Part shown: piece by piece, positions 12,668 through 56,852 of the stretch
Layout: each line of letters opens with the position of its first letter
Position numbering within the stretch: the stretch's first letter is position 1
Assembly: GCA_963714085.1 (NCBI GenBank)
Contig: OY970229.1
Location: forward strand, 632,392-696,391
Direction: 5' to 3'
DNA from: an uncultured Candidatus Micrarchaeota archaeon
GTDB taxonomy: Archaea > Micrarchaeota > Micrarchaeia > Anstonellales > Bilamarchaeaceae
Length of the DNA: 64,000 bases
The notes under the pieces: generated by a model
Database searches by the model: none
Told to the model about the DNA's origin: nothing
The model's input: the letters and a program-made list of their open reading frames with translations, nothing else
Made by a program: the position numbers and the translations under genes

Positions 12668-12671
12668 GTGC

Positions 12672-31970: not shown

Positions 31971-31978
31971 TGCGATCA

Positions 31979-32545
31979 CTATAGCCTTTTGGCTGCCAAT
32001 ATGCCCTTGTCCGTCTTGAAGAACTCGTATTCCTCCGCCAGATAGAGCTTGCCGAGCTGGGAGCCGGCCCCTTTTATCGAGTCCACTATGCTGCCGCTCG
32101 GCAGATCCTCGTAGAGGTAGGCCACTGCGTAGGACTTCCCCATGGACCTGGCGTCCTCCTCCCTCTGCCTGAGCAGGATGCGCCTTATGTCCCTGCCTTC
32201 GAAGGACAGCAGGACCGCGGGGTCTTCGAGATATATGGCGTTCGTCTGCTCCCCGCCCCGCACCGTGCGCCTCTCCGGGTCGTATACCGCGGGCCATGAG
32301 AGGCCCACGCCTATGAGCATGCGGTTGACGCAGCAGCCGAATGAGGTCTTGTAGTCTATTATGCCGCCGACCTCGGCAGGCGTGACGTCGAAGGCGCACT
32401 TCTGCATCACCTTGACGCATTCCTCCAGATCCTCGCGCGTGAGCCTCTTGACCTCGACCTGGTCCTCGTCGAGAAGGTAGAGGAATTTCTTCTTCTGGGC
32501 TTCCGGCTTCTTCTCCTCCTGCTTCAAGGCAAACGACTCGCTCAT
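31979..32545 (-). CDS. Hypothetical cytoplasmic protein (possibly GNAT-like fold)
   Basis: 188 aa with no TM. The weak resemblance to the acetyltransferase fold is an impression only. Confidence 0.45.
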   Translation of the reverse strand: MSESFALKQEEKKPEAQKKKFLYLLDEDQVEVKRLTREDLEECVKVMQKCAFDVTPAEVGGIIDYKTSFGCCVNRMLIGVGLSWPAVYDPERRTVRGGEQTNAIYLEDPAVLLSFEGRDIRRILLRQREEDARSMGKSYAVAYLYEDLPSGSIVDSIKGAGSQLGKLYLAEEYEFFKTDKGILAAKRL

Positions 32546-32910: not shown

Positions 32911-35900
32911 CTATCCTGACCCGGGGGACGGCACGCAGTTTATGTCATAGTTCTTCACAGGCAGGCTGATGCCGCAGAACCCGCCCAGCTGGGTGAGCGA
33001 ATTGCCAGTCCCGATGCCGCAGTCCTGGTTCGCGTTTCCGGTCCTGGAGAACACCGCCGGGGCGGTCACGGACGTGTAGTACATCTGCTTGAAGTACGTG
33101 TAGTTGGCCCCGGTCGAATCCGTCAGGCAGCATTTGCCGGGCTTGCTCATGCCGGCCATCACGTCCTCGTAGGCGTCCGAGACCATGTTCACGGATTTCA
33201 CAAGCGGTTCTGACTCCTGGGTGCCGTTCCCGAAGCTCTCGGTGCAGTTGTATACCGTATTGGTCATGTTGCAGGGCGTGCATGGCTCGACCACGGTCTC
33301 ATCCGGGCATTTGTACTTGCCTACGTCCTCCAAGGGCACGCCCCCGGGCATCGTGCATTGGACGCCGTTGTCGCACGTCTTGCCGCACTCCCCCTGGGCC
33401 AGCTCCAGGGAGGTGCAGAGCGTGCAGTTCACGGACGGCACGGTAAACACCTGGACGAAAGTCGCGTACGGGTTGGTGCCGGCCATCCTGTTTATGGCGC
33501 TCTCGAGCGCGCAGAATTTCGTGGTTTTCATTCCGTATGGCAGTGCGATGCTGGTGCTAGTACCCGGCAGGGAAAACGACAGCACAGTGCTCACGAGGCT
33601 CTCCTTCTGCCCGGCCGTATTCGAGCTGTCGACGCGGACGGGCTGGTATATGAGGCCGATGATGCCGGCTTTCACCAGCTGGTCCTCGTTATTCACTATG
33701 CTGCTGAAGAGCGTCCCGTAGGTGTTGCCATTCCAGTATTGGTCGTCGGTCACGGTGAAATTGGTTATGATGACCGGCTTGCTATAGTTCAGCGCGGCCT
33801 CGCCATATGTCATCACGTCGTTGATCACGAATGAGGCCCTCGTGTCCGCTGTGATCGAACTGGCTGAGTATATCACCGTGTTCGCCAGCCGGGTTATGTA
33901 CCCCGCCAAGCCCAAAAATCCTCCTGCTGTGGCCGCCCCATTGCCGTAATTCGAGGTGTCGTAGTCGGTCACGATCATGTCGACGTTGACCTTCAGCCTC
34001 GGGTCGAAGCCGAATAGCTGGCTCAGGTCGTTATCGTAGGTCGATAACCCTACGCTGCTTCCTGGCACCCTAACCGCGGTCAGGCATCTGGGACAGGCCG
34101 CCCTGACCACCGCGGTCCTGTTCAATATCCTGTTCCTGGACAACGAAGCCGAGGAGGAATTGAACGTGTCCACGACCACCACTATCGCTCCGCTGTTGCC
34201 CAGGAGGCGCTGGAAATCGTACTCTTGGTACAGGCTCGAGTCCTGATGGCCCGATACTAAGCTGCTATCAACCCGTACTATCACATAGGGCGCGGTGAGG
34301 TTCCAGTTGCTGTTATCCGAGATGTCGATCACGGGCATTATGCCGGATTTGAGGTAGTTGCCCATGCGCTCCTTGATCAGGGTCGGGTCCTGGTCGGTCC
34401 TTGGAGCGCCTTCCGGAGTGACGTCGTAGGTGGTGTTCGTCACATAGACGCTGCCGCTGGTGCCCGAGTAGCCGTCTGTACTGCTGACGGATTCATAACC
34501 GGATGTCGACGTCACGTGATAGATGAACAGGTTGCTGTAATCTCCGATGTCGGTCACGTACGGGTCGCCGCAGGAGGTGGTAATGTTGCTCGGTGAGTTA
34601 GCCGTGATACTGCATATCGTGGTCGGGCTCACTCCCTGCCAGAGCTCCTGCTCCATCGATGGGATTGCCACCCTGTTGTCGCTGTTTGCGGATTTCGTGC
34701 CCGCTGTTATCTTCTGGTAAGCCAGGGTCGTGAGCGTGCACGGCTCGCACCAACCGAAGCTCTGGATCTGCGGCAGGGTCGAACCCGGCTCTATGTCGCA
34801 CCTGCCGATCTTCATGTTGCCCCCTGAATCCTTCGTGCCCACGAGCAGGTATATGGTGCTCGGGACCAGAGCCTGGTAAGCCATGGGTTGCCAGTCAAGT
34901 CCATTGCCCTGGCCCAGATTTATCTGCCTGATTGACGCCTTTTGGAGGTTGCAGAGGTTGTTTCCTGCGAAATAGGGCGAGGTTGTCTGCTGGTATATGT
35001 TGTCCTGGTCCCTGAAGAAGTTCAGCGCTGGCGAGTTCAGGATGTCGTACTCAGGGTCGCCATACTTGGGGTCGCCACCGCCGCCACCGCCGCCATCACC
35101 AGAATCGTCCCCGCTAGAAGAATAGTACGCTGGAATGGCCACGAATTTCTTGTACTCGGGTATCCACGGCATGGAGGCGAAGAACAGGTCATCGATGTCG
35201 ACTGAATTCGAGCGGTCGCAGTGCTCGTTCCACTCGTTAGCGTCATTCATATAGCCGTCCATGGTGTCGTTGTAGAGCGGCGCGAACGCGGTCAGAAGGC
35301 CTTGATAGGTGTCATAGAAGTCCTGCCCGGTGCCCGAGAGGTCGACTTTTATGTAGCTGGCGGTGGAAGGATAGCTGGTAACCGTATAATTGCACGGCGA
35401 GGGCGGCTCAGGATTGAATGTCGGGGCGTCTACCGGTGTGTCGGGGTTGGTTGTGTTGATGTAAGCTCTGCAATAAGCGAGGCATCTGCTTAATGTCGAA
35501 TAGGCGCCGTTGGCGTAATTAAACTCGTCAGCCGGGCACTTTCCTGACTTTCCTAGAGTTCCCGCGCAATCGTCCTGGCAGATGGTTACCATCTGGTTCG
35601 GGGTCACTGGCGAATTATAAATGGGTTGGCCCCCCGGCATAGCGTCGAACGAGTAGTTCAGCACTGTGCTCACGGACGCGAAGATGCAGCTCTTGGCGAA
35701 ATAGGTCTGCTCGAACTGCCCCGGGTCCGCCACCGCATAGCCGACTATGGTCTGGCCGTCGTATTGCACGTTCTGGTCGTCGAAGAACACGATCTGGCCC
35801 GCGGGCGGGTATGCGCCTGTCGTGTCCACATAGGAGTCCACCACATTGTTGGTCGAATCCCAGGTGACGCTGAAATCCGACGGAAGCAGGCTCACGGTCG

Positions 35901-37512
35901 CGGGGTCGCCGAACATCTCGTTCTGTATCGTATTGCCAAACTGATCCTGGTACGATCCAGTATTATAGAAGGAACCATCATTTGAGTCCCATAGCTGGAT
36001 GTAGGTGTTCGTACCATCGAAGTAACCGCCCCCAGATGTAAGAGGCGTAGTGAAGAAGTTGTTCCACATCCAGTCGAGCTGGCACTTGTCGTGCTTCTGC
36101 TCGCCGCTCGCCGCACAGCTCGGAATGCCAGCGATCGGTACGTTATCCTGGACATAAGGAGCGTTTTCGGTGTCGCTGCCTGCGTCCTGCAGCTGGTTCC
36201 TGTCGTAGTCCTCAGTGGCAAGCGTAAACTGGACCGGCCTGTAGGTTACGTTGGCGTACACGAAGCTGGCGGTACCGCCTGCGTTGCTCGCGTTGATGGT
36301 CGGGTAGCACACCACGACATTCTGGCCCGTCACCGTTTGGGTGCTCTTGCAGTCCGTGACCACGTAGCTCTGCGTGCCGGCCGCGTCCGTCACGACGTTC
36401 ACGCCCCTGCTGTAGAAATCGTTCGAGCATTCCCCGGAGAGGCACTCGTACGCGGATTTGTCGCACTCGAAGGGCGCGCGCCCCACCGTCGTGTTGTAGA
36501 ACTCCGGTATGTAAGCGGTGGAGAGCGCCTCCCTGTAGAATCCTTTATCCAGCTTCTCGTAGTAGTAAAGGGCAGATTTGTTCAGCCTGCTCGAGGAATT
36601 GGAATTGGGCCAGTCGACTACGCCGGTCGTCGGATGAAGCGTAACCGTCCAGGCATAACCGAGATAATCTATGTACTTGTAGGATTTGAAATCCGTGATG
36701 AAGCTCGGGTTCATGCTCAATGCCTTCGTGATGGTGACGTTCAAGAACGCGTTGGTTCCTGCGGTCGTGAGCGGCAGTATGCTCGCGGTCGGGGTTATGC
36801 TCGCTGGGGGCACCGGCGCCGCGTCGCTCGTGCATGATGTGTTCATCTTCGTCGGGTCGTAGGCGACGTAGGTGCCGGATGCGGTCCCGGGCTGCAGGTA
36901 ATTCATGTACCTGTCTATGGTCCCGGTGGGGTTGATCATGCAGTCCTTGTCCGATATGGGGAAGTAATAATGATAGTAGTCGTATTCGTCGAAATTCGCT
37001 CCTATGCCGAACCTGAAGTCCCCTACCGCGGATTTCGAGGTCTTCATGATCCTCTCGAAGCTCGAGTCCAGGGGAAGGAACCTGCACTGGCCGTTGTAGA
37101 GCGCCTGCGTTTTCGTGCTGGTGCTGCTGGTCGGCATCTCGTTCGCCGCCTCCTGCACCGAGGCCACCCCGGGCGCGACCTGGGGCGCATAGGCGAAATC
37201 GCCGCACGCCATGGCCAGGCAGTCCGGCTTTATGCACTCGGTCAGGTTGTCGTCCGTGCAGAATGGTATGGCAGAGTCGACCGAATCGATGGTGACGTTG
37301 CACATCTCGCTGGTCTGGTTGCAATAGATGGTCTGCGGGTACATGTCGATGAAGGCGTCGTTGGACATGTTGAACCAGTAGCATTTGCCGTCTTTGGTCG
37401 CGTTGTTCCTGACGCAGCAGCCCAGCTCCTTGGATTTGGTTATGCAGCCCGCGGAGAGCAGCATGGCGAAGGCGATCGCGAGCGAGATTGCGAGTGCGGT
37501 CCTGGGCTTCAT
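32911..37512 (-). CDS. Giant (1533 aa) exported Cys-rich, sequon-rich protein with a lipobox-like signal peptide
   Basis: N-terminus MKPRTALAISLAIAFAMLLSAGC. No other TM. Numerous Cys and N-x-S/T sites. Gly run SGDGGGGGGGDP. Start abuts the stop of the upstream membrane gene. Confidence 0.8.
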   Translation of the reverse strand: MKPRTALAISLAIAFAMLLSAGCITKSKELGCCVRNNATKDGKCYWFNMSNDAFIDMYPQTIYCNQTSEMCNVTIDSVDSAIPFCTDDNLTECIKPDCLAMACGDFAYAPQVAPGVASVQEAANEMPTSSTSTKTQALYNGQCRFLPLDSSFERIMKTSKSAVGDFRFGIGANFDEYDYYHYYFPISDKDCMINPTGTIDRYMNYLQPGTASGTYVAYDPTKMNTSCTSDAAPVPPASITPTASILPLTTAGTNAFLNVTITKALSMNPSFITDFKSYKYIDYLGYAWTVTLHPTTGVVDWPNSNSSSRLNKSALYYYEKLDKGFYREALSTAYIPEFYNTTVGRAPFECDKSAYECLSGECSNDFYSRGVNVVTDAAGTQSYVVTDCKSTQTVTGQNVVVCYPTINASNAGGTASFVYANVTYRPVQFTLATEDYDRNQLQDAGSDTENAPYVQDNVPIAGIPSCAASGEQKHDKCQLDWMWNNFFTTPLTSGGGYFDGTNTYIQLWDSNDGSFYNTGSYQDQFGNTIQNEMFGDPATVSLLPSDFSVTWDSTNNVVDSYVDTTGAYPPAGQIVFFDDQNVQYDGQTIVGYAVADPGQFEQTYFAKSCIFASVSTVLNYSFDAMPGGQPIYNSPVTPNQMVTICQDDCAGTLGKSGKCPADEFNYANGAYSTLSRCLAYCRAYINTTNPDTPVDAPTFNPEPPSPCNYTVTSYPSTASYIKVDLSGTGQDFYDTYQGLLTAFAPLYNDTMDGYMNDANEWNEHCDRSNSVDIDDLFFASMPWIPEYKKFVAIPAYYSSSGDDSGDGGGGGGGDPKYGDPEYDILNSPALNFFRDQDNIYQQTTSPYFAGNNLCNLQKASIRQINLGQGNGLDWQPMAYQALVPSTIYLLVGTKDSGGNMKIGRCDIEPGSTLPQIQSFGWCEPCTLTTLAYQKITAGTKSANSDNRVAIPSMEQELWQGVSPTTICSITANSPSNITTSCGDPYVTDIGDYSNLFIYHVTSTSGYESVSSTDGYSGTSGSVYVTNTTYDVTPEGAPRTDQDPTLIKERMGNYLKSGIMPVIDISDNSNWNLTAPYVIVRVDSSLVSGHQDSSLYQEYDFQRLLGNSGAIVVVVDTFNSSSASLSRNRILNRTAVVRAACPRCLTAVRVPGSSVGLSTYDNDLSQLFGFDPRLKVNVDMIVTDYDTSNYGNGAATAGGFLGLAGYITRLANTVIYSASSITADTRASFVINDVMTYGEAALNYSKPVIITNFTVTDDQYWNGNTYGTLFSSIVNNEDQLVKAGIIGLIYQPVRVDSSNTAGQKESLVSTVLSFSLPGTSTSIALPYGMKTTKFCALESAINRMAGTNPYATFVQVFTVPSVNCTLCTSLELAQGECGKTCDNGVQCTMPGGVPLEDVGKYKCPDETVVEPCTPCNMTNTVYNCTESFGNGTQESEPLVKSVNMVSDAYEDVMAGMSKPGKCCLTDSTGANYTYFKQMYYTSVTAPAVFSRTGNANQDCGIGTGNSLTQLGGFCGISLPVKNYDINCVPSPGSG

Positions 37513-38598
37513 TCATATCACCTTGGTCACCATTCTCATCAGCGTGTACGGGTCTCCGCCCAGCAGGGTCATCATGTAGCGCACGAAGGCGAGCGTGAGG
37601 AAGAGAGCGACGAGGGGCTGCAGTATGAGGCCTATGTAGGCCTGCGAGAGCTGGTCGCTGATACGGGCGAAGCTGAGCGACTGTGTCGCGGCGCCCGCGG
37701 TGTTGGTGGACACCATCGCCACCGCTGCGCTGAGCGTGGGATAGCAGAGCTGCTGCGCCAGGACCTGCGGGCTCCCCATGACCGGGGGCGAGTCCACCTT
37801 CACGAAGCCCGGGTCCAGAAGCACGAAGAAGACCGGGAACAGGAAGAAGAGCCCGACGCCGAGCGAGATGAACAGCGCGCCCGCGCCCCTCGTGAACTGG
37901 AACGAGCGGAGCAGTATGCCCAGCGGTATGAACATCGTCAGCATGGTGTTCTTCACGTAGAGCACCAGGAAGGACTGGGCGTCCAGCCCTATGAGCAGCA
38001 CCGTGGCGAGGTTGTTCGATATGCGTATGGACTCTGTCTCCTGGAACATGCTGCCTATCCAGTCGCCCCTGAACACTGTGATCCCGAAGAACGATACCTG
38101 CATGTTGAGCAGGTTGAAGTCCAAGGCGCTGCCGCTGACGATGGCGTCCTGGATCTTCGCTATGGCCATCGCCTTCTCCTGGAGCCTGCACTGCACTATC
38201 GCGAGCATATCCTGGAAGGATTGCGTTGCGACCTGGTCCGAGGTATCGGACGGGCCATTTATGTTTCCGGCCATGACCGGCATCTGCGTGCCGCCGCATG
38301 TGACGTAGGAGCTGCTGCTCCCCAGGACGCCGGCCACGAACGAGCCCGCGCCGGTGACGATGGTGGCGCCGCCGATGAGACACATCGCCATCAGGGCGGT
38401 TGCGATCGCCTGGAGTATCTCGGATTCGGCGTAATGCTCCAGCTCGGTCATTTTGAATGCCTTGGCGAACGCGATGAACAGGGCGTAGATGGTGACGGCT
38501 ATCAGCGTGGCGAGTATGCACATGGGGAGCCAGCTGGCCCAGCTCCCGAAGAAATCCATGGCGTCAAGCAGCGGCATAACAGGCAACATAGTCATCAC
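37513..38598 (-). CDS. Polytopic membrane protein, paralog F of a six-member tandem family
   Basis: 361 aa. Motifs HYAESEILQAIAT, GILLRSFQFTRGAGALFISLGVGLFFLFP, and C-terminal LLGGDPYTLMRMVTKVI. ATGA overlap with the upstream paralog. Confidence 0.8.
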   Translation of the reverse strand: MMTMLPVMPLLDAMDFFGSWASWLPMCILATLIAVTIYALFIAFAKAFKMTELEHYAESEILQAIATALMAMCLIGGATIVTGAGSFVAGVLGSSSSYVTCGGTQMPVMAGNINGPSDTSDQVATQSFQDMLAIVQCRLQEKAMAIAKIQDAIVSGSALDFNLLNMQVSFFGITVFRGDWIGSMFQETESIRISNNLATVLLIGLDAQSFLVLYVKNTMLTMFIPLGILLRSFQFTRGAGALFISLGVGLFFLFPVFFVLLDPGFVKVDSPPVMGSPQVLAQQLCYPTLSAAVAMVSTNTAGAATQSLSFARISDQLSQAYIGLILQPLVALFLTLAFVRYMMTLLGGDPYTLMRMVTKVI

Positions 38599-39770
38599 AC
38601 CATCTGGAGCAGCCTGCTCAGGTCTATCTCCTCACCGTAAATCCTCGCCAGGTAGTTCACCGAGGCCAGTGCCGCGAGCAGCGCGGCGGTCGGCAGGAAC
38701 ACTCCGGCTATGAACGCGTAGGCCGCGAATGCTATCGCCCCCGCGGCGTTATCGACGCCGCCCGGGAAATATAACTTCTCGAAGTAGGCCGCCCCGCTGC
38801 TCAACGCGGCCGCCGTGGATGCGCCCAGCGCGCTGGCGCCGGCATTGTTGGGGAACACGTTCTCGTCCAGGAAGGGCGCCACATTCTGAGGCGGGCTCAG
38901 CAGCACGTCCGTCATCATCCCGAGTATCGCGAGCATGAGGGGGTATATCACCATGAACGAGAGGGCCAGGGCTATGAGCAGGGAGCCGAAGGAGCGCATG
39001 TAGGGCATGGAGCGCATGAATATGGCGAACGGGAGCAGGAACAGCACGAATCCCTTGTATATGAACATCAGTATGAACAGGAAATTGAGCGTCGTAAGGT
39101 ATGCGACGAGGGTGCTGTTGAAGAACAGGTTGAGGGGGCCCATGACCGAGGAATAGGCGCCGAGGGCCGGGCCCTGGGTGCCGGAATAGGAGAAGAAGCA
39201 GCCCCACCCTATTGCCGGGATCGTGAAGACCCCGAAGACGCTTATCGGCGGCTGCCTCAGGTCGCAGCTGAACATGCTTATCTGGCTCAGGATGGTGAAG
39301 GCCTCGAGATGGTAGCGCACCATCATGAGCGCGGTATGGCTGTAGATCAGCGTATTGGTGAGGTACGCCTGCGCCGCGGAGTACACCGAGCCGGAGTAGT
39401 CCGAACCGATGGGCACCCCGAATATGGACGCCACGTCGCCCATGTTTATCGCGCAGAAGGAGTCCACCAGGAAGAGCAGGAGCGCCACTGAGGCCACGGA
39501 CATGAGTATCTGGATTATCTCCCCTTTGGCCCAGACGGTCACCTTGGGATTGCTTATGATCTGGCCTATGTAATAGCCGAACACTATGATCATTATGCCG
39601 GCCGCGCTTGCGATCGCGCATATGTCCAGTATCGGTCCGTTGAGGATCGTGTCGAATCCCGGGGAGCACACCTCGGTCCCTTCGATCGGCGGCGTAGCCG
39701 GTGGCACGGCCGCGTGCAGGGCGCTTATCAGCAGGAGGAGGAACGCGAGGAGGAGGATGTGTTTCGCCAT
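38595..39770 (-). CDS. Polytopic membrane protein, paralog E
   Basis: 391 aa. Signal peptide MAKHILLLAFLLLLISALHA. Motifs TVWAKGEIIQILMS, AIFMRSMPYMRSFGSLLIALALSFMVIYP, and C-terminal IYGEEIDLSRLLQMV. Confidence 0.8.
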   Translation of the reverse strand: MAKHILLLAFLLLLISALHAAVPPATPPIEGTEVCSPGFDTILNGPILDICAIASAAGIMIIVFGYYIGQIISNPKVTVWAKGEIIQILMSVASVALLLFLVDSFCAINMGDVASIFGVPIGSDYSGSVYSAAQAYLTNTLIYSHTALMMVRYHLEAFTILSQISMFSCDLRQPPISVFGVFTIPAIGWGCFFSYSGTQGPALGAYSSVMGPLNLFFNSTLVAYLTTLNFLFILMFIYKGFVLFLLPFAIFMRSMPYMRSFGSLLIALALSFMVIYPLMLAILGMMTDVLLSPPQNVAPFLDENVFPNNAGASALGASTAAALSSGAAYFEKLYFPGGVDNAAGAIAFAAYAFIAGVFLPTAALLAALASVNYLARIYGEEIDLSRLLQMV

Positions 39771-40748
39771 TCAGACCACCCTCGACAGCGCGCTCACGTC
39801 GACCTCCGCTCCGGCGAGCGAGGTTATGGCCCTTATGCCAGCGCTCATCATGAGCACCGCGACGACGGGGCCCAGCGTGGCTTTCACGAATATCAGGTAC
39901 ATGTAGGACTTTATCGCGGTCCTGAGCGAATTGTACACTTTTATGGCGGCGTCCGAATTGCCGTCACCGACGTCGCCCGGCGTGCATGAGGGGCTGATGC
40001 CGCTCAGGCTCCCGCTCCCGGGCTGGTAGCCGGCCGCGTCCGGGCTGGCCAGGAACGACTTGCCGAGTATGTCAACGAAGACTATGCCCATGGGCAGCAG
40101 GAGGTAGAGGGAGATGGCCAGCGCGATGAGGAAGCCGCCCGCGCCGCGCGTGAACCTGAAGGTGCGCAGCACGATGCCCAGCGGCAGGATCAGGTTCAGC
40201 CCGTAATTGACCGCGATGTCTATCAGCCGGTAGGCCGCGTTCAGCTCGCCCAGCGCGAAGCCCATGATGGTGCCTGCCAGCGAGAACGGGCCCGCGAGCA
40301 TGGAGAACCCGCCGCATCCGGACACGGAGTATCCTATGCCCTGGAGGTTGCAGGAGAGCATCTGGGAGCCCTGTATGCCCGCGTTCTTGTCCACCGCGCG
40401 CACGTCGTCATATGCCGAGGACAAGTCGGTTATGGAGGTGTTCAGGCTGTCGAGGGCGGCCAGCTGCAGCGTGGGCGCTCCCTGGGTGAGGTCCGAATTC
40501 GTTGACAGCCCGTCTATGAAACTGTTCGCGCCGTAGAAGACCGCGATCATGATGGCGAGCGCGATGAGCTGGTAGACCTCGTCCTTGGCCAGCGCGGTGA
40601 GGGCGTCGACGCCGAAGCCGAACCCTATCATGTACACCACCGCGACCAGTATGAGGGATGTGAGGATGGCCAGGGCTGCCGTGTCCTGCCATGCGGCGAA
40701 GCTGGCGGACACCAGCAGGAACAGCGCCAGCAATGCCTTTCCCTTCAT
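39771..40748 (-). CDS. Polytopic membrane protein, paralog D
   Basis: 325 aa. Signal peptide MKGKALLALFLLVSASFA. Motifs LAKDEVYQLIAL, GIVLRTFRFTRGAGGFLIALAISLYLLLP, and C-terminal LAGAEVDVSALSRVV. Confidence 0.8.
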   Translation of the reverse strand: MKGKALLALFLLVSASFAAWQDTAALAILTSLILVAVVYMIGFGFGVDALTALAKDEVYQLIALAIMIAVFYGANSFIDGLSTNSDLTQGAPTLQLAALDSLNTSITDLSSAYDDVRAVDKNAGIQGSQMLSCNLQGIGYSVSGCGGFSMLAGPFSLAGTIMGFALGELNAAYRLIDIAVNYGLNLILPLGIVLRTFRFTRGAGGFLIALAISLYLLLPMGIVFVDILGKSFLASPDAAGYQPGSGSLSGISPSCTPGDVGDGNSDAAIKVYNSLRTAIKSYMYLIFVKATLGPVVAVLMMSAGIRAITSLAGAEVDVSALSRVV

Positions 40749-40757
40749 AATATCGCC

Positions 40758-42890
40758 TCAGAATATCCTTGACATGCCCGGGATCTCCACGTCCCCGCCA
40801 AGCATCTCGGAGAGGGACTTTATCACTATGAGCGTCGCTGCTATGTTCAGCAGCGGAAGCAGGTAGGCCGGCCCCATGAACTTGGCCACAGACTGTATCT
40901 CCTGCGCGCCGACCATGCCCTCGGCCCCTATCTGGGTATACGCGCCGGACGTCTTGGACGGCCCGCTGTCCGAAGGCGCGCACAGGTTCGTGCATTCGGT
41001 GTCTATCGGAGGGTTGTAGGTGTACGACTCCTGGCTGGTCGCGCACGTGTCGCATGAGCTGTAAGGCACCTGCACCCGATAATCCAGGGGGCAGCTCGTG
41101 GGGGAGCAGTCCTCGTGTATAACCCAAAAGTCGAAGTCAGTGAGGTATAGGGCCGGGAGGTTCGTGCCGATTATCCTCATATCCTCCGGGCAGGTGCTGC
41201 AATTGATGCTGTCCGTGGGGGCCTTCGCCTCTATGGCGGCCAGCGGCACCTTGCACGTGTCAGGGCATTGCTTGCACGAGACGCCGTCCTCGCTGTCATT
41301 GCTGCAGTATTCCGGGAGTATCTTCGACATGTCGGACGTGCCGTTGTTCATCCTGCACTCCTCCGGGCATCCGGTGCACAGGTCGTCGCACGAGCCGAAA
41401 TTGGGCATCACCCAGACGCAGCTCTGGTTCGCGTCCAGGCTCGCGATGCAGTCCTTGGGATACGTGTTGCAGCGGCTGGCGTTCGCGACGCTCGGGTCCA
41501 CGGAGGGCCTCCAACTCAGGTCGCTCACCTCCGCCACCCTGCAGTCGAACCTCGACTGCAGGCAGTTGCCTCCTGACTTGTTCCCGTTATTGGCGTTCAG
41601 ATCGCAGTCGCTCCTCAGCGGCGGGACTATCTTGCACTCGCTGGGGCATGCGGCCGCCTCGGTGGTGTTGATATGCACGATTATGCGGGTCACCTTGCAT
41701 TCCGCTGGAAGCGCCGCGCATGCGAACTGCTGGGTGTAGTTCGCGCACAGGTTGGAGCCTGCCGGGTAGGGAAGATCCCTGCAGGAGCGGTCGCAAGCAA
41801 TGTCACACTGACCGTTTCCTCCGCAGCTCGGATCGGTTATATGCACGGTCCAGTTCTCGCAGGAGGTCACGTTTACGCCGGAGTTGTTGAGCATGGAGTG
41901 GGTGTTGCCGAGTATGAGGTCCCTGACGGCGTCTGTCTGCGAGTCGTCGAACAGGGCGTATACCTGCGTGGTGGTGTTCAGGGCCACCGTCTCGCCGCCC
42001 TGCTTGTAAAAGGCGATCGGAGCCACGTAGCTGCATTCCGCTGGGCAGAAGCTGGGGAGCGTACTGCTCGCGTCCCCGGTTATCGTCATGTCGAGGCTCA
42101 TCCAGTCGAAGATGTACATGGCCGGGAAGAAGAACATCACTCCCACGGCGATTGCTATGAGGAGGCCGCCTACCTTGCGCGATATGAAGAACGACCGCGC
42201 CACTATGCCCAGCGCGAGAAGGAGCGGCGCGACCTTGAAGCATATCTCGCTCACGAAGAATACCTGGGAGTATAGCGAGGACAGCACGCCCTGGTAGTAC
42301 TCGAAGACCAGGCCGTACCTGTCGGCATCCAGTATGTAATTGGCCCAGAGCGACCATGTCACCCCGGCCTCCGCGCACCATACCGAGTAGCAGTAGATCC
42401 CGAAGCGCCTGTTCGCCCAAGCGGTGGCCACCAGGTCCTGGTGCAGCACGTTCTTCGCACCGTCCTGCGCGATTCCTATGTAGTCGCTCAGGTAGGCGTT
42501 CGCGGTCTTGTTCAGGCAGTTCTCGCCGGGGACGCAGTGGAGGCCTCCTATGCCGGAGGCGTTCACCATGGTCATGGTCGTGACATCCATGAGCGCGACT
42601 ACGCCTATGAGCGCGATCACGATGATCGCGTTCGCGAACACCTGGCCAAGCTCGCTCCTAGCCCAGGCCTGCATCTCGGGCAGCTCGAATCCTATACCCA
42701 CCATGTAGCCGATGCCCACGAGCACGGTGGATAACACGAGGGCGATCACCGAGATGGACTGCCAGTTGTTGAACAGCTCGAACGCGGAGCTGGACGGAGC
42801 CTGCTGCACGACCTGGGTGACGTTCTGGGCGAGCGCCGTGGCTGATAGCAGCAGAAGGACGATCGCCAGCGTGAGTCTGTGCTTCATCAT
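40758..42890 (-). CDS. Polytopic membrane protein, paralog C, with a ~360-aa Cys-rich ectodomain insertion
   Basis: 710 aa. Signal peptide MMKHRLTLAIVLLLLSATALA. Motifs AWARSELGQVFAN, GIVARSFFISRKVGGLLIAIAVGVMFFFP, and C-terminal MLGGDVEIPGMSRIF. The insertion carries CPAEC, LPAEC, CPSEC, CPEEC, CPDTC and CPED motifs. Confidence 0.8.
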   Translation of the reverse strand: MMKHRLTLAIVLLLLSATALAQNVTQVVQQAPSSSAFELFNNWQSISVIALVLSTVLVGIGYMVGIGFELPEMQAWARSELGQVFANAIIVIALIGVVALMDVTTMTMVNASGIGGLHCVPGENCLNKTANAYLSDYIGIAQDGAKNVLHQDLVATAWANRRFGIYCYSVWCAEAGVTWSLWANYILDADRYGLVFEYYQGVLSSLYSQVFFVSEICFKVAPLLLALGIVARSFFISRKVGGLLIAIAVGVMFFFPAMYIFDWMSLDMTITGDASSTLPSFCPAECSYVAPIAFYKQGGETVALNTTTQVYALFDDSQTDAVRDLILGNTHSMLNNSGVNVTSCENWTVHITDPSCGGNGQCDIACDRSCRDLPYPAGSNLCANYTQQFACAALPAECKVTRIIVHINTTEAAACPSECKIVPPLRSDCDLNANNGNKSGGNCLQSRFDCRVAEVSDLSWRPSVDPSVANASRCNTYPKDCIASLDANQSCVWVMPNFGSCDDLCTGCPEECRMNNGTSDMSKILPEYCSNDSEDGVSCKQCPDTCKVPLAAIEAKAPTDSINCSTCPEDMRIIGTNLPALYLTDFDFWVIHEDCSPTSCPLDYRVQVPYSSCDTCATSQESYTYNPPIDTECTNLCAPSDSGPSKTSGAYTQIGAEGMVGAQEIQSVAKFMGPAYLLPLLNIAATLIVIKSLSEMLGGDVEIPGMSRIF

Positions 42891-42891
42891 G

Positions 42892-43854
42892 TCACCCTAG
42901 TGCCCGCAATGCTTTGTTAGTTGCAGCGATGAAGGTTATGAACATTGCCATTGTGAGGTTCGGCAGGAAGAACGCCTGCGGTATCAGCCTCCCCACGTTC
43001 CAGAACCCGTAGGTGGCGCAGCCCGGGCCGAACACGAAATCGTTGACGCCGGCGGCGAACGTGCTGCAGTTCTGGCCCATTATGTCGTACATGGACAGGT
43101 TGAACGCGTACATGAAGGGCACGAGCACGTAGAGCCCCACAGCCACGGCGATGAGCATGTTGCCCATGTTGCGGAAGGGGGGTATCACCCTGAAGAGGAA
43201 CGCTATGGGCAGCACCCAGGTTATCACGTTGCTGTTTATGAATTCCAGGACCATCTTCTGCATGTTGATGCTGATGAGCGCGGGCAGCACGAAGCTGTTC
43301 ATCACCATGTCGTACTGCTGGGCATGCACCTTGAGGTAGCTGTCCGCCACCGCGGTGTACGCGTCCATCAAGGGAATCTGGACCGTGAATGCGAATGTGG
43401 ACTGCATCATGAGCTGTATGTTCTGGTTGATGTAGTACTGGGCGATGTTGTCCGCGTCGTCCTGCGCCATTTTGATGTAGCACATGGAGGTCGCGTTCAT
43501 GTTGCCTTGCACGTAGCACGAGAGGGTCCCCATCTTGGACATTGTGGAATCGAAGAAATAGTTCATGGTCTGGCAGGAGACGAGCAGTATGCCGGAGAAG
43601 CCGATGAGCAGCAGGATCGAGAAGAACAGATGGTAGAGCTCGTCCTTTGCCAGCACGGTGAGCCCGGAGTTGCTCGTGATGCTGCCGCCCGCGTACGCGA
43701 CCGCGATTATCATCACCGTCAGGCTGAATGCCGCGACTATCGCCGCCCCCTGGCCGTTCACCGGATCCAGTATCGCCTGGGTGGCATTGCCTATGCAGGA
43801 CGATGCGGAGAACACCGCGGGCATCAGGAGAAGGAGCAGCAGCAGGCGCCTCAT
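42892..43854 (-). CDS. Polytopic membrane protein, paralog B
   Basis: Start at MRRLLLLLLLMPAVFSASSC (comp. 43852-43854), overlapping the paralog A stop by 1 nt. Motifs LAKDELYHLFFS and AFLFRVIPPFRNMGNMLIAVAVGLYVLVP. Confidence 0.75.
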   Translation of the reverse strand: MRRLLLLLLLMPAVFSASSCIGNATQAILDPVNGQGAAIVAAFSLTVMIIAVAYAGGSITSNSGLTVLAKDELYHLFFSILLLIGFSGILLVSCQTMNYFFDSTMSKMGTLSCYVQGNMNATSMCYIKMAQDDADNIAQYYINQNIQLMMQSTFAFTVQIPLMDAYTAVADSYLKVHAQQYDMVMNSFVLPALISINMQKMVLEFINSNVITWVLPIAFLFRVIPPFRNMGNMLIAVAVGLYVLVPFMYAFNLSMYDIMGQNCSTFAAGVNDFVFGPGCATYGFWNVGRLIPQAFFLPNLTMAMFITFIAATNKALRALG

Positions 43855-45059
43855 CACACAAACCTCTGTATCCCGGCTAGATACCATTCGCCGCCGAGCG
43901 CAGTCGAGATGCTGCGCGCCCCGGACATGGTTATTATCGCTATCACTATGGTGTCGAGGTAGCTGAGCAGGATGGCGTTGTTAACGTTGCTCAGGAAGGT
44001 CACGAGCACTCCGAACGCCTGGTCAGTGTAGCCGACGCCCTCCCCGGCGAACGCGATCCAGGCCCCGAGGGCGGTGTCGTAGCTGACCTGCAGGCCTATC
44101 ATGAGGAGGGGGTATACGACGTACTGCACCAGGTCCTGGCATGGCAGGAAGAATCCGGCTGTCCAGGGGGTCAGAAGGAGCGGCAGGCACACCACTATGG
44201 AGAAGAGGAGGTCGTTGAGCGAGAGGAGCACGCGTATGGGCATGAGCTCGCAGAACGGCTGCGCCACGGTCATCGCCCACGTGCCCGGGTCCAGCTGGTC
44301 CAGCTGGGAGCTGGTCAGGTATGCCTTCGGATAGTCGATGACCTTGTTCGTCTCTCCGATCAGGATGACCGAGAACGGCACGAGCACCATGCCCGCGAGG
44401 CAGATGGCGACCAGCGTGTTCCCGGTTTTCCGCGTGAACGGGATCATGCGGAGGGAGAGCGAGACGGGCAGCAGCACCGCGGGCACGGCAGTGGCGCAGA
44501 ATTTGAGGATGAACAGCAGGCCCTCGTAGATGAAGATGCTGTTCGCGATGCCGCTGGTCGCTGAGGTGAGCGAGGAGAAAAGCGGGGCCACGCCGCCCAG
44601 CGGGGACGTCGAGTATGTCAGGCCCACTACGTACAGGGGGACGCTGATGTATGGGGAATACGTCGCAGCGGCCCTTATCTTGGTCGCGGCCCTTATGATG
44701 TCGTCGAACGACCGGTCCAACCCGGTCGTCTGGTTAGTCATGAGGTTGGTTATGACGTCCTGCGAAGCGGTCAGGTAATCTCCCTGACCGGTTATCGCCT
44801 TCGTCAGGCTCGTGGAGCCCACGAAGAACGCGTATATGAGCGCCGCGAGTATCACGCCGGCGATGAGCTCCCGGAGCTCGTTCTTGGACCAGGCCTCCAG
44901 CTGGGGCGATGAGACCGCGGTGGAGAGCATCATCATCAGTGCGAGGAATATGGCCACCAGCACGGCCGTGATCGGCACTATTGACGTGAAGTCGGGGCCG
45001 GATGCGAATGAGAGTCCGAGCACGATTAGCAATAGCAATAGGTGCCTGAACGGACGCAT
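43854..45059 (-). CDS. Polytopic membrane protein, paralog A (first gene of the operon)
   Basis: 401 aa. Signal peptide MRPFRHLLLLLIVLGLSFASG. Motifs AWSKNELRELIAG, LSLRMIPFTRKTGNTLVAICLAGMVLVP, and C-terminal ALGGEWYLAGIQRFV. Confidence 0.8.
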   Translation of the reverse strand: MRPFRHLLLLLIVLGLSFASGPDFTSIVPITAVLVAIFLALMMMLSTAVSSPQLEAWSKNELRELIAGVILAALIYAFFVGSTSLTKAITGQGDYLTASQDVITNLMTNQTTGLDRSFDDIIRAATKIRAAATYSPYISVPLYVVGLTYSTSPLGGVAPLFSSLTSATSGIANSIFIYEGLLFILKFCATAVPAVLLPVSLSLRMIPFTRKTGNTLVAICLAGMVLVPFSVILIGETNKVIDYPKAYLTSSQLDQLDPGTWAMTVAQPFCELMPIRVLLSLNDLLFSIVVCLPLLLTPWTAGFFLPCQDLVQYVVYPLLMIGLQVSYDTALGAWIAFAGEGVGYTDQAFGVLVTFLSNVNNAILLSYLDTIVIAIITMSGARSISTALGGEWYLAGIQRFV

Positions 45060-45109: not shown

Positions 45110-48100
45110 ATGCGGACGAGACTGCTTTTTGTGGCATTGCTGGTTTTAGTAGCGCTGATGGCCCGGCCGATCATGGCCGACTGCACGATCCCTGGCACCG
45201 ACTGCCCGGCGTGCAGCGAGACGAACGGCGTGCCCCAGGCGCAGATGTTCCTCAAGGTGAATTCCGCGAATGAGTCGCTCGTCGGCACCTTTTTCTACGA
45301 GAACATCTCCGACGAGGCGAATCCCAGGCCGCTGCTCGTGGACGCGCCCGTGATAGTGGAGATGTACAACAACACCGTAGACAAGACATACCGCATATAC
45401 ACGGACGCGAACGGCAAGGCGGTGTTCGACTTCTCGGCGTACGCAGGAGCATGCATGAACTTCAAGGTCATGTACTGCCCCTTCGCATGCACCACCGGTC
45501 CCTCAAAGTCGGACTGCGGGTTCCAGAACTGCCTCAATTACTCCGGCATACCGTGCAGCCCGGGCACGTGCCTGGCCTCATGCACAGCAGGGAGCGTATT
45601 GGACGCCCCTAACATCCAAGCTCCGCAGACCCCGCAGTGCTACATCCTGCTACCGACCATGGACACCGCGAGCTACTGCCCGCCGCCGCCCCCGATCAGC
45701 AGCGTGCCGGCGATATGCTTCCCGCTGCTGCTCATATTCGCTGTGCTCGGAGGCGGGCTTTTCCTCAGCGGGAAGAATCCGTTCGGGGGCTTCGACTTCA
45801 CCACTCCGAGGACCGGGAAGCACATAAGGTACGAGGCCAAAGGCAGGGGGCTCGGGGTGAGCGCGCCGAACGTAGTCACCCAGAAGATACACGAAACCGG
45901 AAACAAGCTCGCGACAGCCGGCGCGAAGAAATTAGCTGGCGGAGCCGCTTCACTGATGGCAGGAGGCGGCAAAAAGGGAGCGGCCGCATCCGCGTCTGTC
46001 GCAGGACACATAGAAATGAAGCAAGCAGGAGGACAGAGAGGAGGCGGCATGGTCACGATGGCCGGCGGCAGGACGATGGCGACGGGAAGCCCTGCTGAAA
46101 GGTTTGGCGGTTTCGGGAAGGTCCTGGGCCTTGTCGGTTATGGGATCAAGGGGACTGTACAGGCCATAAGCGGGAATACCACCGGCGCGAAAGCCACATT
46201 CATGAAAAGCTCGATGATATCCCAGAGCGTGGGCGGCATCAAGAGCATGGTTAATACCAACAGGGCCGTGAATAAGGCTATGGCGAATGCCGCTTCGGCC
46301 AACCCCATCGTCTACACTCCGGTGGCATGGGCGATGCTCATCTCAACGCTGAAGAACGCCCAGGACGTGAATGATGGGAAGAAAACCCAGGCCGGATTGG
46401 GCTCGATCGTATCCCAGCTCATGAATGTCAAAAAAGGGAAGGCAGGCGCCAAGACAACCATAGATAATTCCAAGACAGTGACGGTGAAAGAAAACCCCGC
46501 GGATCCAAATAGCAAGAATGTGAACAAGGTCGTATACGAGATGACAGTAGGGGGCAAAAAGGTGGTGGCGACGCTCGATGAGGCCTCCCTGCGCCTCGGC
46601 AAATTCAACGGGACTGTGACTGTCGGAAACAAGACAGTCAATATAGAAGAAGGCAAGGTTGTAAGCGGCTGGAACGAGCTGGGCGGCAAGGACAGGAACG
46701 CGGTGACAGACAGGGTCAGCATCAGCGAGGTCAGGCAGCTGGTGGATGGGGATAAGACCGCCAAAAAAGAGCTCGAGAAAACTGGCACGACCACGGTCAC
46801 GCTGGGCAGTGGAGAGACGATAAAGGTCTCGGTCGCTGCCGATAAGGAAGGCAAGTTCAGCGCATCCGCGATCAGCGATGAGAAAGGCACCAAGGGCAGT
46901 TTCACCATAACGACCTCGGATGAGCGGGTGACCTTCGTCAAAGACGGCAAACCCACGACGCCTATTGGCGAGAGACTCGACATGACCGAGATCACGGGCA
47001 AGCTGAGGAGCGAGGGCGCCATGAGCGATATCGCGGAATCCGGCAAGACCACGATCAAGCTGGAAAGCGGGGAGAAGGTGACGGTCATAGCCGCGGATGT
47101 CGCTTCCCTGGATAGCGGCAAGTTCAGCATAAAGACAGACGATGACAAGATAGTGGTGGTCGATACCAGCAAGAAGGATCCGAACACTGGCAAGCCGGAT
47201 CCAATCGTATCCGTGGGCACGTCCATAACCGGAGCCAGTGATCTGGCCGCGACCGGGAAGGAGTTGGGCATGCCTGCCATCACCGCCACGCTCACTGCTG
47301 CGGTGACCATGGAAAGCAGGTTCAGCTCAAACGAGTACGGCGGCGCGGTCACGGTGGTGACGAACCCGCTCGGCTCGCCGGACGACTATACGGTCATAAG
47401 GCCCCGAGACAATGACGACTTGAAAGGCGTGGCGTTCGAGGTCGTTGATGGGAAGGTCAAGACGATAACCGACAATAGCACCGGCGAGTCCCTGAAGGCA
47501 GACAGCACGACCGGGATCAAGGTGGGCTCGGGCGCACCCGGATACATACCGGACAAGGTGGCCGCACTCGGCGCATCCGTGGTGCAGGTGCAGATGGCGG
47601 GCCAGGACCTGGCGAACGATACCATGAGACTCGAAAAGTCGCTCCACGACATCCGCGTGACCGACTCCGTGAGCAGCGCCAACGGAGGGGCACCGGAAGA
47701 GGTGAGGGATTACCTCAGCGAGCACCCCGAGGTGCACGCGACGATTATCCAGCAAGCGCACGAGGATGCGATAGAGACAATGGCGAGGAAGGATTATCCG
47801 GAAAAGGCGGATGAATTCAGGGCAGCGAACCAGCAGTTTGAGAAGGACAGGCAGACCATGGGTTCTGAGGCGGCATACGACAAGGATCTGAAGCCGGTCA
47901 CGGAAAAGCCATTCGAAGAGTTTGCAGCGAGGTCCGTCAGGGAAGAGACAAGCTCGCAGGGAGCGAGATACGCCGAACTCGTCAACAAGCCGGAGATCAG
48001 CGAGGGCCTCAGTTACGATGAGATCGCGAAAATGAAGGCGGATACGAAGCCGTATGGTGCGGCGATGGCAGCGGCCGCGGCGACCGAGCTCCAGTCCGGA

Positions 48101-48511
48101 GCCAGGAGCGATACCGAGGTGCGGATCCACGAGATAGGCGTATACGCGCAGGCAGAAGCCAAAAACACGGGCCCGACCGAGCCGCAGAAAGGGGTGGACA
48201 TGCTCAACTCCGCGATAGCGAGTCTCCAAAAGGAGGAACAAGAAAGGAAACCTCCCGAAGCTGCCGAAGCAACGGCCCGGCAGGCAGTCGTACCGGTCAG
48301 GACAGGCGGCGGGGGATCCGAACCGCCATCCAAACCCGAGACCCCGGCCGTCAGCGAACCCGTCAAACCAGAGGCGCCGGAAGAAACGAAGCGGGCCAAA
48401 CGTGAAGAGACAGTGACCCCCAGCGAACCCGTCAAAGTCGAGAAGCCCGAGGAGCGGGAAGCAGAGGAAACCACGAAGCCCAGGAAGAGGGGCGGCAAGA
48501 AGGAATCCTGA
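45110..48511 (+). CDS. 1133-aa single-pass membrane protein: Cys-rich ectodomain, one TM, then a long repeat-containing K/G/T/E-rich region
   Basis: Signal peptide MRTRLLFVALLVLVALMARPIMA. Cys-rich ~190 aa. PPPPP then TM PAICFPLLLIFAVLGGGLFLSG. Internal repeats (TGTTTVTLGSGETIKVSVAADKEGKFSAS / SGKTTIKLESGEKVTVIAADVASLDSGKFSIK). Acidic/basic tail. Confidence 0.8.
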   Translation: MRTRLLFVALLVLVALMARPIMADCTIPGTDCPACSETNGVPQAQMFLKVNSANESLVGTFFYENISDEANPRPLLVDAPVIVEMYNNTVDKTYRIYTDANGKAVFDFSAYAGACMNFKVMYCPFACTTGPSKSDCGFQNCLNYSGIPCSPGTCLASCTAGSVLDAPNIQAPQTPQCYILLPTMDTASYCPPPPPISSVPAICFPLLLIFAVLGGGLFLSGKNPFGGFDFTTPRTGKHIRYEAKGRGLGVSAPNVVTQKIHETGNKLATAGAKKLAGGAASLMAGGGKKGAAASASVAGHIEMKQAGGQRGGGMVTMAGGRTMATGSPAERFGGFGKVLGLVGYGIKGTVQAISGNTTGAKATFMKSSMISQSVGGIKSMVNTNRAVNKAMANAASANPIVYTPVAWAMLISTLKNAQDVNDGKKTQAGLGSIVSQLMNVKKGKAGAKTTIDNSKTVTVKENPADPNSKNVNKVVYEMTVGGKKVVATLDEASLRLGKFNGTVTVGNKTVNIEEGKVVSGWNELGGKDRNAVTDRVSISEVRQLVDGDKTAKKELEKTGTTTVTLGSGETIKVSVAADKEGKFSASAISDEKGTKGSFTITTSDERVTFVKDGKPTTPIGERLDMTEITGKLRSEGAMSDIAESGKTTIKLESGEKVTVIAADVASLDSGKFSIKTDDDKIVVVDTSKKDPNTGKPDPIVSVGTSITGASDLAATGKELGMPAITATLTAAVTMESRFSSNEYGGAVTVVTNPLGSPDDYTVIRPRDNDDLKGVAFEVVDGKVKTITDNSTGESLKADSTTGIKVGSGAPGYIPDKVAALGASVVQVQMAGQDLANDTMRLEKSLHDIRVTDSVSSANGGAPEEVRDYLSEHPEVHATIIQQAHEDAIETMARKDYPEKADEFRAANQQFEKDRQTMGSEAAYDKDLKPVTEKPFEEFAARSVREETSSQGARYAELVNKPEISEGLSYDEIAKMKADTKPYGAAMAAAAATELQSGARSDTEVRIHEIGVYAQAEAKNTGPTEPQKGVDMLNSAIASLQKEEQERKPPEAAEATARQAVVPVRTGGGGSEPPSKPETPAVSEPVKPEAPEETKRAKREETVTPSEPVKVEKPEEREAEETTKPRKRGGKKES

Positions 48512-55067: not shown

Positions 55068-55076
55068 GGTGTTCAC

Positions 55077-56731: not shown

Positions 56732-56852
56732 CCCGCCTTAGCTCAATGGTAGAGCGGTCGGCTGTAGCTTGGTCCGGCTCCTTTTTGGAGCTTCACTACT
56801 GTAATCAGCAGTAGATACCGACAGGTTGCTTGTTCAAGTCAGGCAGGCGGGA
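56732..56852 (+). tRNA. tRNA-Tyr (anticodon GTA, 56764-56766) with a 49-nt intron at the canonical 37/38 position
   Basis: Acceptor CCCGCCT/AGGCGGG. D arm GCTC-AATGGTA-GAGC. Anticodon stem GTCGG/CCGAC. T arm GCTTG-TTCAAGT-CAGGC. Discriminator A. Intron about 56768-56816. Confidence 0.8.

Follow-up and report, generated by a model that had tools for sequence, protein, structure and literature searches.

Organization of a six-paralog cluster and its enlarged third gene

We analyzed a 64,000-nucleotide (nt) stretch of DNA from an uncultured Candidatus Micrarchaeota archaeon (contig OY970229.1 of assembly GCA_963714085.1; hereafter the window), in which six tandem paralogous genes lie on the minus strand in the order A-B-C-D-E-F. 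The third of these, gene C (40758..42890), encodes a 710-amino-acid (aa) subunit that is predicted to contain a signal peptide and to span the membrane with five transmembrane (TM) helices, its N-terminus lying outside and its C-terminus inside, and that carries a large Cys-rich insertion. The other members, all on the same strand, are paralog A (43854..45059; 401 aa), B (42892..43887; 331 aa as listed), D (39771..40748; 325 aa), E (38595..39770; 391 aa), and F (37513..38598; 361 aa). The listed start of B overlaps A by 34 nt, and an ATG at codon 12, the likely start, shares one base with the stop codon of A. From A to the next gene downstream of F, designated G, the gene junctions are -1, 1, 9, 0, -4, and 0 nt. 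These spacings of -4 to 9 nt indicate that A to G form a translationally coupled operon.

The six products share about 20% mutual identity, and each has a signal-peptide-like N-terminus and five hydrophobic segments. The motif R-x5-R-x2-G, located in the cytoplasmic loop between TM3 and TM4, was common to all six. A C-terminal L-G-G-[D/E] tail was present in all but B, which ends at the L-G of this motif without the final roughly 12 residues of the other five paralogs. The residues invariant across A to F were the Glu of W-x-K-x-E-L, three loop 3 residues (two Arg and one Gly), the Pro of TM4, and one Gly of the tail. All of these lie on the predicted cytoplasmic face or within TM4, where they would suit ring-forming contacts or contacts with a shared cytoplasmic partner.

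Hydropathy placed the TM segments of C at residues 48-66, 83-101, 212-236, 243-261, and 672-693. The membrane core (42108..42749) comprises TM1 to TM4, an outside loop at residues 102-211 with the invariant cysteines C119 and C125, and the cytoplasmic R-x5-R-x2-G motif at 232-241. TM5 and the cytoplasmic tail (40761..40877), with the motif LGGD-x-E-I-P-G-x-S-x-x-F, showed a pairwise identity of 0.70. The insertion lies between TM4 and TM5 and corresponds to a predicted Cys-rich, N-glycosylated ectodomain at residues 262-671 (40878..42107) with 34 Cys and 12 sequons. As defined by hydropathy, this loop is 410 aa long in C, compared with 124 aa in A, 42 in B, 59 in D, 70 in E, and 60 in F, each of which has only 0-3 Cys in it. 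An initial annotation of this DNA had described a loop extended by about 360 residues, with roughly 40 cysteines and several sequons, in one paralog only. The loop is indeed confined to C and short in the other five, but it measured about 410 aa, exceeding those of the other paralogs by roughly 290-370 aa, and the cysteine number fits the whole protein (39 Cys and 15 sequons) rather than the insertion. In the interval originally delimited, 40941-42038 (residues 285-650 of C), we counted 33 Cys and 12 N-x-S/T sequons.

Scanning species-representative genomes yielded 159 relatives. The best 80 of the 159 were nearly all labeled as Micrarchaeota, Micrarchaeia, or Bilamarchaeaceae, and a few were labeled only as "archaeon"; three loci and one protein labeled "ainarchaeum" were the exceptions in lineage. 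In current NCBI naming, this group is the class Micrarchaeia of the phylum Microcaldota, and the module was present in at least about 150 species-level Micrarchaeota genomes. We fetched 81 loci, called their open reading frames (ORFs), and searched them with a hidden Markov model of the six paralogs. Loci uncut by a contig end contained six family genes in one orientation, and 64 six-gene loci were used for order counts. The A ortholog was first in 63 of these, and the third gene was the large Cys-rich one in all 64 (600-1405 aa with 22-107 Cys, the other genes usually encoding 300-450 aa with 3-10 Cys). Furthermore, 382 of the 384 proteins matched best the window paralog of equal position. 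The fixed order and the position-wise orthology indicate that C acquired its insertion, and that the six paralogs arose by duplication, before the sampled phylum radiated. The ectodomain can thus be called "grafted", as had been suggested, in a deep evolutionary sense but not as a recent event.

Two variations on this organization were observed. Three metagenome-assembled genomes (MAGs) each contained two full six-gene clusters on separate contigs (loci L030/L033, L011/L051, and L016/L055). In a few deep-branching Micrarchaeia (L072, 12994-16525; L068, 6234-7922; and L070), A, D, or E carries N-terminal knottin-like Cys-rich domains before TM1. These have reiterated C-C-S-G...C and no CPxxC, and they represent a decoration route independent of the insertion in C.

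Reiterated knuckle motifs and conserved cysteines in the ectodomain of C

The eight short motifs quoted in the initial annotation were all present in C, namely, FCPAECS at residue 281, LPAECK at 394, ACPSECK at 414, GCPEECR at 507, QCPDTCK at 541, TCPEDMR at 566, TSCPLD at 598, and NLCAPSD at 635. CPxxC occurred four times against 0.19 expected from shuffles (P = 5e-5) and CxxxC eight times against 2.7 (P = 0.002). The 12 sequons of the ectodomain compared with 4.4 expected, a 2.7-fold enrichment, and none of 5000 shuffles reached 12. The pattern of CPxxC, CxxxC, and sequons in C therefore exceeds chance.

Expressed more generally as [C/L]-P-x-x-[C/M/Y]-[K/R]-hydrophobic, the motif was found at residues 282, 366, 394, 415, 446 (degenerate), 508, 542, 567, and 600. 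In the AlphaFold2 (AF2) model of C, whose mean predicted local distance difference test (pLDDT) score is 79.3 and whose values are mostly 80-92 across residues 280-640, eight copies have the identical DSSP signature HHH-EE, that is, a one-turn helix ending at the second Cys and a two-residue beta bridge after the basic residue. We refer to this unit as a knuckle. (The AF2 model of paralog A has a pLDDT of 81.5.)

To describe conservation, we used 54 relatives of C from a 5.8-billion-protein set, nearly all of them 600-770 aa long, 32-87% identical, and aligned over most of their length. Knuckle block 1 (residues 362-453; 41532..41807, minus strand) contains the copies at 366, 394, 415, and 446, together with the stretches CRELPYP, CKIVPPLKSDC, and SRFDCRVA, and its cysteines were invariant in all 54 orthologs. 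Knuckle block 2 (residues 501-606; 41073..41390, minus strand) contains the copies at 508, 542, 567, and 600, which are of the CxxCPxxC[K/R] type, and 12 Cys. This second block, about residues 501-600 with its four knuckles and 12 Cys, was lost as a unit in 8 of the 54 orthologs and was the least conserved part of the ectodomain (identity of 0.32 excluding Cys).

Formal repeat detection gave negative or borderline results, at odds with the repeat periodicity that the initial annotation had implied. In a self-comparison of the ectodomain with hhalign, no significant repeat was found, the best off-diagonal matches having P = 0.004-0.01; one such weak match paired residues 365-424 with 507-576. 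Likewise, the Smith-Waterman self-alignment of C was within the range of shuffles (z = 1.15). In two long C-type relatives, internal similarity reached z = 3.5, above 30 of 30 shuffles. An exhaustive HMMER search of 1.84 billion representatives (clusters at 50% identity) yielded 2,912 family members, of which the top 150 were inspected. Among these, the C-type proteins of 1000-1700 aa contained 60-128 Cys (most at least 80) and usually 9-14 CPxxC; relatives longer than 900 aa had about 10-11 copies. A logo derived from 577 motif windows read [C-x-x]-C-P-x-[E]-C-[R 53%/K 23%]-[V/I]-x-P-P, with C at -3 (36%), P at +1, E at +3 (33%), R or K at +5 (76%), V or I at +6, and P at +8 and +9. The number of motifs increased with protein length (rho = 0.50, p = 5e-12).

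Modularity, which had also been proposed, is thus evident at the level of the short motif, in the eight equal DSSP signatures, in the block lost as a unit, and in the additional copies of long relatives, but not as a formal repeat. Given weak formal tests and clear motif-level reiteration, the ectodomain is best described as a chain of small Cys-stapled knuckles that is evolutionarily variable in number, and not as a regular tandem repeat.

We next considered the cysteines individually. Thirty-two ectodomain Cys were near-invariant among the 54 orthologs: among the 34 of the insertion, 16 were invariant or present in at least 50 orthologs, 12 were present in 46-47, and 4 in 53. The pair 356/362 was lineage-specific. 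The second outside loop of C likewise contains an invariant pair, 119/125, and a lineage-specific one, 167/172. The number of ectodomain Cys was even in 50 of the 54 orthologs, with totals that include 34, 22, and 14, and gains or losses occurred as pairs or as the block of 12. Excluding Cys, the pairwise identity of the ectodomain was 0.32-0.46, similar to that of the other outside loop of C; the conservation of the membrane core was 0.55-0.72. Four stretches outside the cysteine framework, CRELPYP, CKIVPPLKSDC, SRFDCRVAKR-DL-WRP, and PASL-A--SCV-V-P, were kept across the phylum, and a profile of the ectodomain alone retrieved solely C-type Micrarchaeota proteins. These results indicate that the ectodomain of C is ancient and moderately conserved, and not hypervariable. 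This is more in line with a rod or head that has a structural role and a conserved partner than with a hypervariable receptor for ligands.

Predicted topology and the bonding of the ectodomain cysteines

We modeled the topology of C from hydropathy and the positive-inside rule and from where sequons, Cys, Lys, and Arg occur in the 54 orthologs. Sequons were confined to the N-terminal segment, the 102-211 loop, and the ectodomain, with densities per 100 residues of 1.3 in the ectodomain, 0.8-1.8 in the other outside segments, and 0 in the cytoplasmic loops. Of the ectodomain residues, 8% were Cys, as against 0% in the cytoplasmic loops; across all orthologs, the three predicted cytoplasmic segments contained neither Cys nor sequons. 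The 11-residue loop preceding TM4 was 27% K/R. The model obtained runs from the signal peptide through an outside N-terminal segment, TM1, an amphipathic stretch in the cytoplasm, TM2, the outside loop, TM3, the cytoplasmic R-x5-R-x2-G segment, TM4, and the ectodomain to TM5 and the cytoplasmic tail. The ectodomain is predicted to be on the extracytoplasmic side, and the distribution of Cys and sequons together with the basic loop before TM4 argues against a cytoplasmic location. Because it leaves the outer end of TM4 and rejoins the protein at TM5, it would sit atop the helical membrane core.

The ectodomain cysteines probably form disulfides. Their even number, the paired arrival of lineage-specific Cys, totals that are not multiples of four, the outside location, and the enrichment of sequons were all counted in favor of this, and the disulfide-type pattern noticed in the initial annotation fits the paired cross-links suggested by gains and losses in pairs or as a block of 12.

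Metal binding, the other option raised in that annotation, is less favored than disulfides and appears unlikely. The cysteines would then form Zn(Cys)4 knuckles or clusters resembling iron-sulfur (Fe-S) centers, and the ectodomain would be a metal-stabilized, metal-sequestering, or redox module at the cell surface. C has four CxxC spacings in addition to the eight CxxxC, several of them fused as CxxCPxxC, which could build Cys4 sites; even counts are equally compatible with such sites, and both the conserved set (32 Cys) and the dispensable block (12 Cys) are multiples of four. Record titles trace many of the related MAGs to groundwater, sediments, Zodletone, Lac Pavin, and similar anoxic or sulfidic settings, in which disulfides have lower stability and would be endangered if exposed. 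The window also encodes extracytoplasmic thiol and metal functions, a DsbD_2-HMA-cupredoxin fusion and a Cu-ATPase. However, C matched no metal-binding or Fe-S family in Pfam or NCBIfam, its knuckle motif is without His, and CxxCPxxC is, to our knowledge, not a canonical cluster motif. Lineage-specific Cys arrive as single pairs, and the totals of 34, 22, and 14 are not divisible by four. In addition, the pairs 119/125 and 167/172 of the other outside loop resemble small disulfide loops, and strong enrichment of N-glycosylation sequons is typical of structural ectodomains.

The fusion gene mentioned above, with HMA, DsbD_2, and cupredoxin domains, is followed by the Cu-type P1B ATPase gene at 11162-14945 on the plus strand, forming a pair for extracytoplasmic thiol and copper handling. 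The DsbD_2 part is a CcdA-like thiol-disulfide membrane transporter, and the pair may bear on the upkeep of a Cys-rich surface proteome.

Partner genes and a possible role in the cell envelope

Protein G (32911..37512, minus strand) abuts the stop codon of F. It is a 1533-aa protein, secreted or anchored, with 51 Cys and 28 sequons and one hydrophobic segment, which lies at the N-terminus and ends in LLSAGC, resembling a lipobox. A homolog of G was found directly after F in 62 related loci. Protein H (45110..48511, plus strand) is divergent from A and encodes a 1133-aa bitopic protein with a signal peptide, an outside domain of about 180 aa with 14 Cys, a TM segment at 201-219, and a cytoplasmic tail of about 900 aa rich in K, A, G, and E. 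Segments are visibly repeated in this tail, for example, TTVTLGSGETIKVSVAADKEGKFSAS and TTIKLESGEKVTVIAADVASLDSGKFSIK. Homologs of H occurred in 51 related loci, divergent from A in most lineages and directly after G in deeper-branching ones. BLASTP of C against G and against H detected no similarity, which indicates that the ectodomain is not shared with these partner proteins. G matched nothing in Pfam, NCBIfam, or PHROGs, and the CPxxC motif was not found in it. A to F and H likewise matched nothing in scans of these three databases, in which the sole match was Lon_C on a neighboring gene.

That gene (30222..32420, minus strand) encodes a Lon_C (S16 peptidase) protein (Pfam, 8e-10) with a TM segment at 684-702, 12 sequons, and no AAA+ module. 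Codons 1-150 of the listed ORF, rich in Arg, seem spurious; translation probably starts at M151, which is followed by a signal peptide. The signal peptide, the C-terminal TM segment, and the sequons predict an extracytoplasmic, membrane-anchored protease. Homologs were found about 5.5 kilobases (kb) downstream of F in 32 loci. In loci L001 and L002, an S8 peptidase gene lies downstream of the cluster, and a Lon-like homolog was not detected.

The other genes of the window are housekeeping genes. An origin of the cluster from a mobile element or virus was rejected on the basis of these flanks, the conserved synteny, and the finding of no relatives in 2.9 million viral contigs. Two tRNA genes were identified with Rfam on the plus strand (4918-5044, 127 nt; 56732-56852, 121 nt). 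Because both matched the full 71-position model, each must contain an intron of about 50 nt. No tRNA was reported for the window by ARAGORN run in its bacterial mode. The introns of these tRNA genes and the protein matches place the source organism in the archaeal DPANN phylum Micrarchaeota. An IS605 OrfB/TnpB gene with a Cas12f-like TNB domain (51435-52769, minus strand) adjoins the gene for aspartate carbamoyltransferase, and the local GC content is lower there (0.52). At 54144-56687 (plus strand), a gene for an IF-2B-family protein resembling ribose-1,5-bisphosphate isomerase adjoins one for a DeoA-type AMP/nucleoside phosphorylase, a nucleotide-salvage pair of the archaeal AMP pathway.

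Taking these observations together, we consider the best explanation, with a probability of roughly 0.55, to be a hetero-oligomeric envelope complex in which one subunit bears a glycosylated, disulfide-stapled rod or head outside the cell. In this model, residues 262-671 of C would form an extracytoplasmic, N-glycosylated, Cys-cross-linked domain, most likely with about 16-17 disulfides, assembled from the reiterated unit [C-x-x]-C-P-x-x-C-[K/R]-hydrophobic, each copy contributing a one-turn helix and a short beta bridge. A to F, as ancient and non-interchangeable paralogs, would assemble in the membrane into a single hetero-oligomeric platform, each probably present once. Only C would provide the platform with a rigid outside rod or head, whose size may be set by the number of knuckles (about 4-5, 8-9, or 12-14). 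The platform would work in the Micrarchaeota envelope with G and H, its constant genomic partners; the Lon-like protease, predicted to be extracytoplasmic, is a frequent one. A possible role of the module is in the cell-envelope or host-contact machinery of host-dependent episymbionts, for instance, in docking or uptake.

Several points weigh against this explanation. The anoxic or sulfidic habitats, the even counts, and the fused CxxCPxxC motifs discussed for metal binding are among them, as are the results of the hhalign and Smith-Waterman self-comparisons. The hetero-oligomer of A to F is suggested by genomic evidence, and a function in host contact, uptake, or scaffolding is hypothetical. 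Moreover, cryo-electron tomography (cryo-ET) of the micrarchaeon ARM-1 attributed the intercellular nanotubes to the host and not to the micrarchaeon (PMC11329633). An identity of the module with the ARM-1/host nanotube is not supported, because the nanotubes originate from the host.

A further-reaching version of the envelope complex is speculative and, in our estimate, unlikely to hold in full. It would make A to F, G, and H an unrecognized Micrarchaeota-specific envelope machine, a pseudo-symmetric hetero-hexamer of TTYH-like five-TM subunits in which C is a length-adjustable, disulfide-stapled knuckle rod across the pseudo-periplasm and surface layer (S-layer), docking on the host together with G and acquiring host lipids or metabolites.

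The likeness to TTYH came from structure comparison. TTYH1, TTYH2, and TTYH3 were the top Foldseek matches of the model of paralog A, with about 400 aligned columns, E = 6e-3 to 5e-2, and probabilities of 0.44-0.77 (7p5j_A, E = 6e-3, probability 0.66; 9g71_A, E = 9e-3, probability 0.77), and TTYH chains were also among the matches of the C model. TTYH proteins run through five TM helices from an outside N-terminus to an inside C-terminus, and their outside domain, which extended TM helices support, carries disulfides and N-glycans (PMC8361169). The predicted plan of A to F is equal in its five TM segments, termini, glycosylated outside loops, and conserved disulfides, and TTYH1-3 and the five-TM prominins share with it two large outside loops on extended TM helices. 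In addition, TTYH2 is reported to mediate lipid transfer (PMC12328215), and Micrarchaeota need host lipids. A to F could accordingly be imagined as prokaryotic counterparts of TTYH/prominin-type five-TM proteins, forming a complex that takes or hands over host lipids with the ectodomain of C as its distal contact element. We regard this as quite unlikely. The TM-scores for the A model were 0.14-0.20 with a root-mean-square deviation above 19 A, so that the match could be a generic long-helix similarity. In a Pfam scan of A to F at E <= 0.1, no family matched, including Tweety (PF04906), and searching the sequences of all PDB chains with profiles A1, A2, and A3 returned no meaningful match and no TTYH at E <= 10. 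TTYHs are known from eukaryotes only and are homo-oligomeric, forming homo-dimers or tetramers, whereas A to F are six co-encoded paralogs; TTYHs also do not have a 410-aa CPxxC knuckle domain. We take the likeness as an analogy of function that merits testing and do not count A to F as members of the family.

It is decidedly unlikely that the ectodomain is a rapidly diversifying host-recognition adhesin, a strict version, acting largely alone, of the ligand-recognition head that the initial annotation had put forward as a possibility. Its predicted outside and glycosylated state, the variation of protein size by lineage (600-1405 aa), the low identity of the middle block (0.32, the least conserved), and the two cluster copies in some MAGs would suit such a role. 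However, 32 Cys and several other stretches are kept phylum-wide, and overall conservation equals that of the other outside loop, which fits a conserved partner, G or other subunits, better than variable host ligands.

We consider it very improbable that A to F build the platform of an apparatus for type IV secretion or of a conjugation-like one, as divergent VirB6/TrbL-like proteins of which C would be the "extended VirB6". Weak Foldseek matches of the C model to R388 TrwI/VirB6 (8rtd_L, 8rt9_F, and 7o3v_F; TM-score on target, 0.28-0.31; E of about 2-3) and to a viral TrbL-annotated model (E = 2.1) point in this direction, but their E-values are far from significant, VirB6 was absent from the first 50 matches of the paralog A model, and neither Pfam TrbL/VirB6 (PF04610), even at E = 0.1, nor NCBIfam gave a match. 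Tandem enlarged VirB6 paralogs with extra domains, as in Rickettsiales, are a known theme in obligate symbionts, and VirB6/TrbL proteins are, like A to F, polytopic and helical, with outward helices and an oligomeric platform. A gene for a HerA-type ATPase also lies about 11 kb from the cluster. It is, however, unlinked in other genomes, no relatives occur on viral contigs, and the neighborhoods of the window and of L001-L003 contain no VirB4, VirD4, or other type IV secretion gene; where those systems have ATPases and Vir parts, the conserved partners here are G, H, and the Lon-like protease.

Other systems are comparable by analogy only. In mycobacteria, six paralogous subunits, MceA-F, form a hetero-hexameric needle for lipid import. 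The parallel would lie in an operon of six ordered paralogs, in long helices on the outside, and in a host-dependent organism that takes up lipids, but A to F have no MCE domain, YrbE permease, or MceG ATPase and five TM segments instead of a single one, and no homology was detected. Furin-like and TNFR repeats and the CxxC repeats of Giardia VSP are serial Cys-stapled units of variable copy number in glycosylated, extracellular proteins. The ectodomain of C resembles them in its small serial units with little regular secondary structure, whereas it is built from a distinct unit, C-P-x-x-C-[K/R], and lies within a loop of a polytopic membrane protein, in an archaeon. The EGF, TNFR, furin-like, and Giardia VSP families of Pfam matched neither C nor seven long C-type relatives (1100-1700 aa), and these relatives had no other Pfam match. 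Foldseek of the C model against PDB and BFVD gave nothing at E < 0.1, and full-text literature searches found no paper describing the family. The Micrarchaeota S-layer protein SLP_Mh has almost no sulfur amino acids and contains the S-layer domains TIGR01564/01567 (bioRxiv 10.1101/2021.04.28.441871). Identification of C or G as an S-layer protein of this type was rejected, both being Cys-rich and without an NCBIfam match. By these comparisons, neither the ectodomain nor the module appears to belong to any described family.

Micrarchaeota and other DPANN archaea synthesize neither their lipids nor many metabolites, encode few recognizable transporters, and live attached to archaeal hosts, with Micrarchaeota depending on cell contact with them (PMC8975820). 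The eight-gene module is a candidate for the symbiont-side surface machinery of contact or uptake. It combines six ancient, non-redundant paralogs, an expandable knuckle ectodomain, and a giant Cys-rich glycoprotein, and none of its components is annotated. The module is therefore a concrete target for groups working on cryo-ET, proteomics, and structure prediction, and the ectodomain of C adds a new type of Cys-rich extracellular module in Archaea. If the envelope machine outlined above is real, it would be the apparatus for uptake and contact that this DPANN lineage has so far seemed to lack. If the complex is ordinary envelope scaffolding, it would still provide a marker for the phylum and a new protein family.

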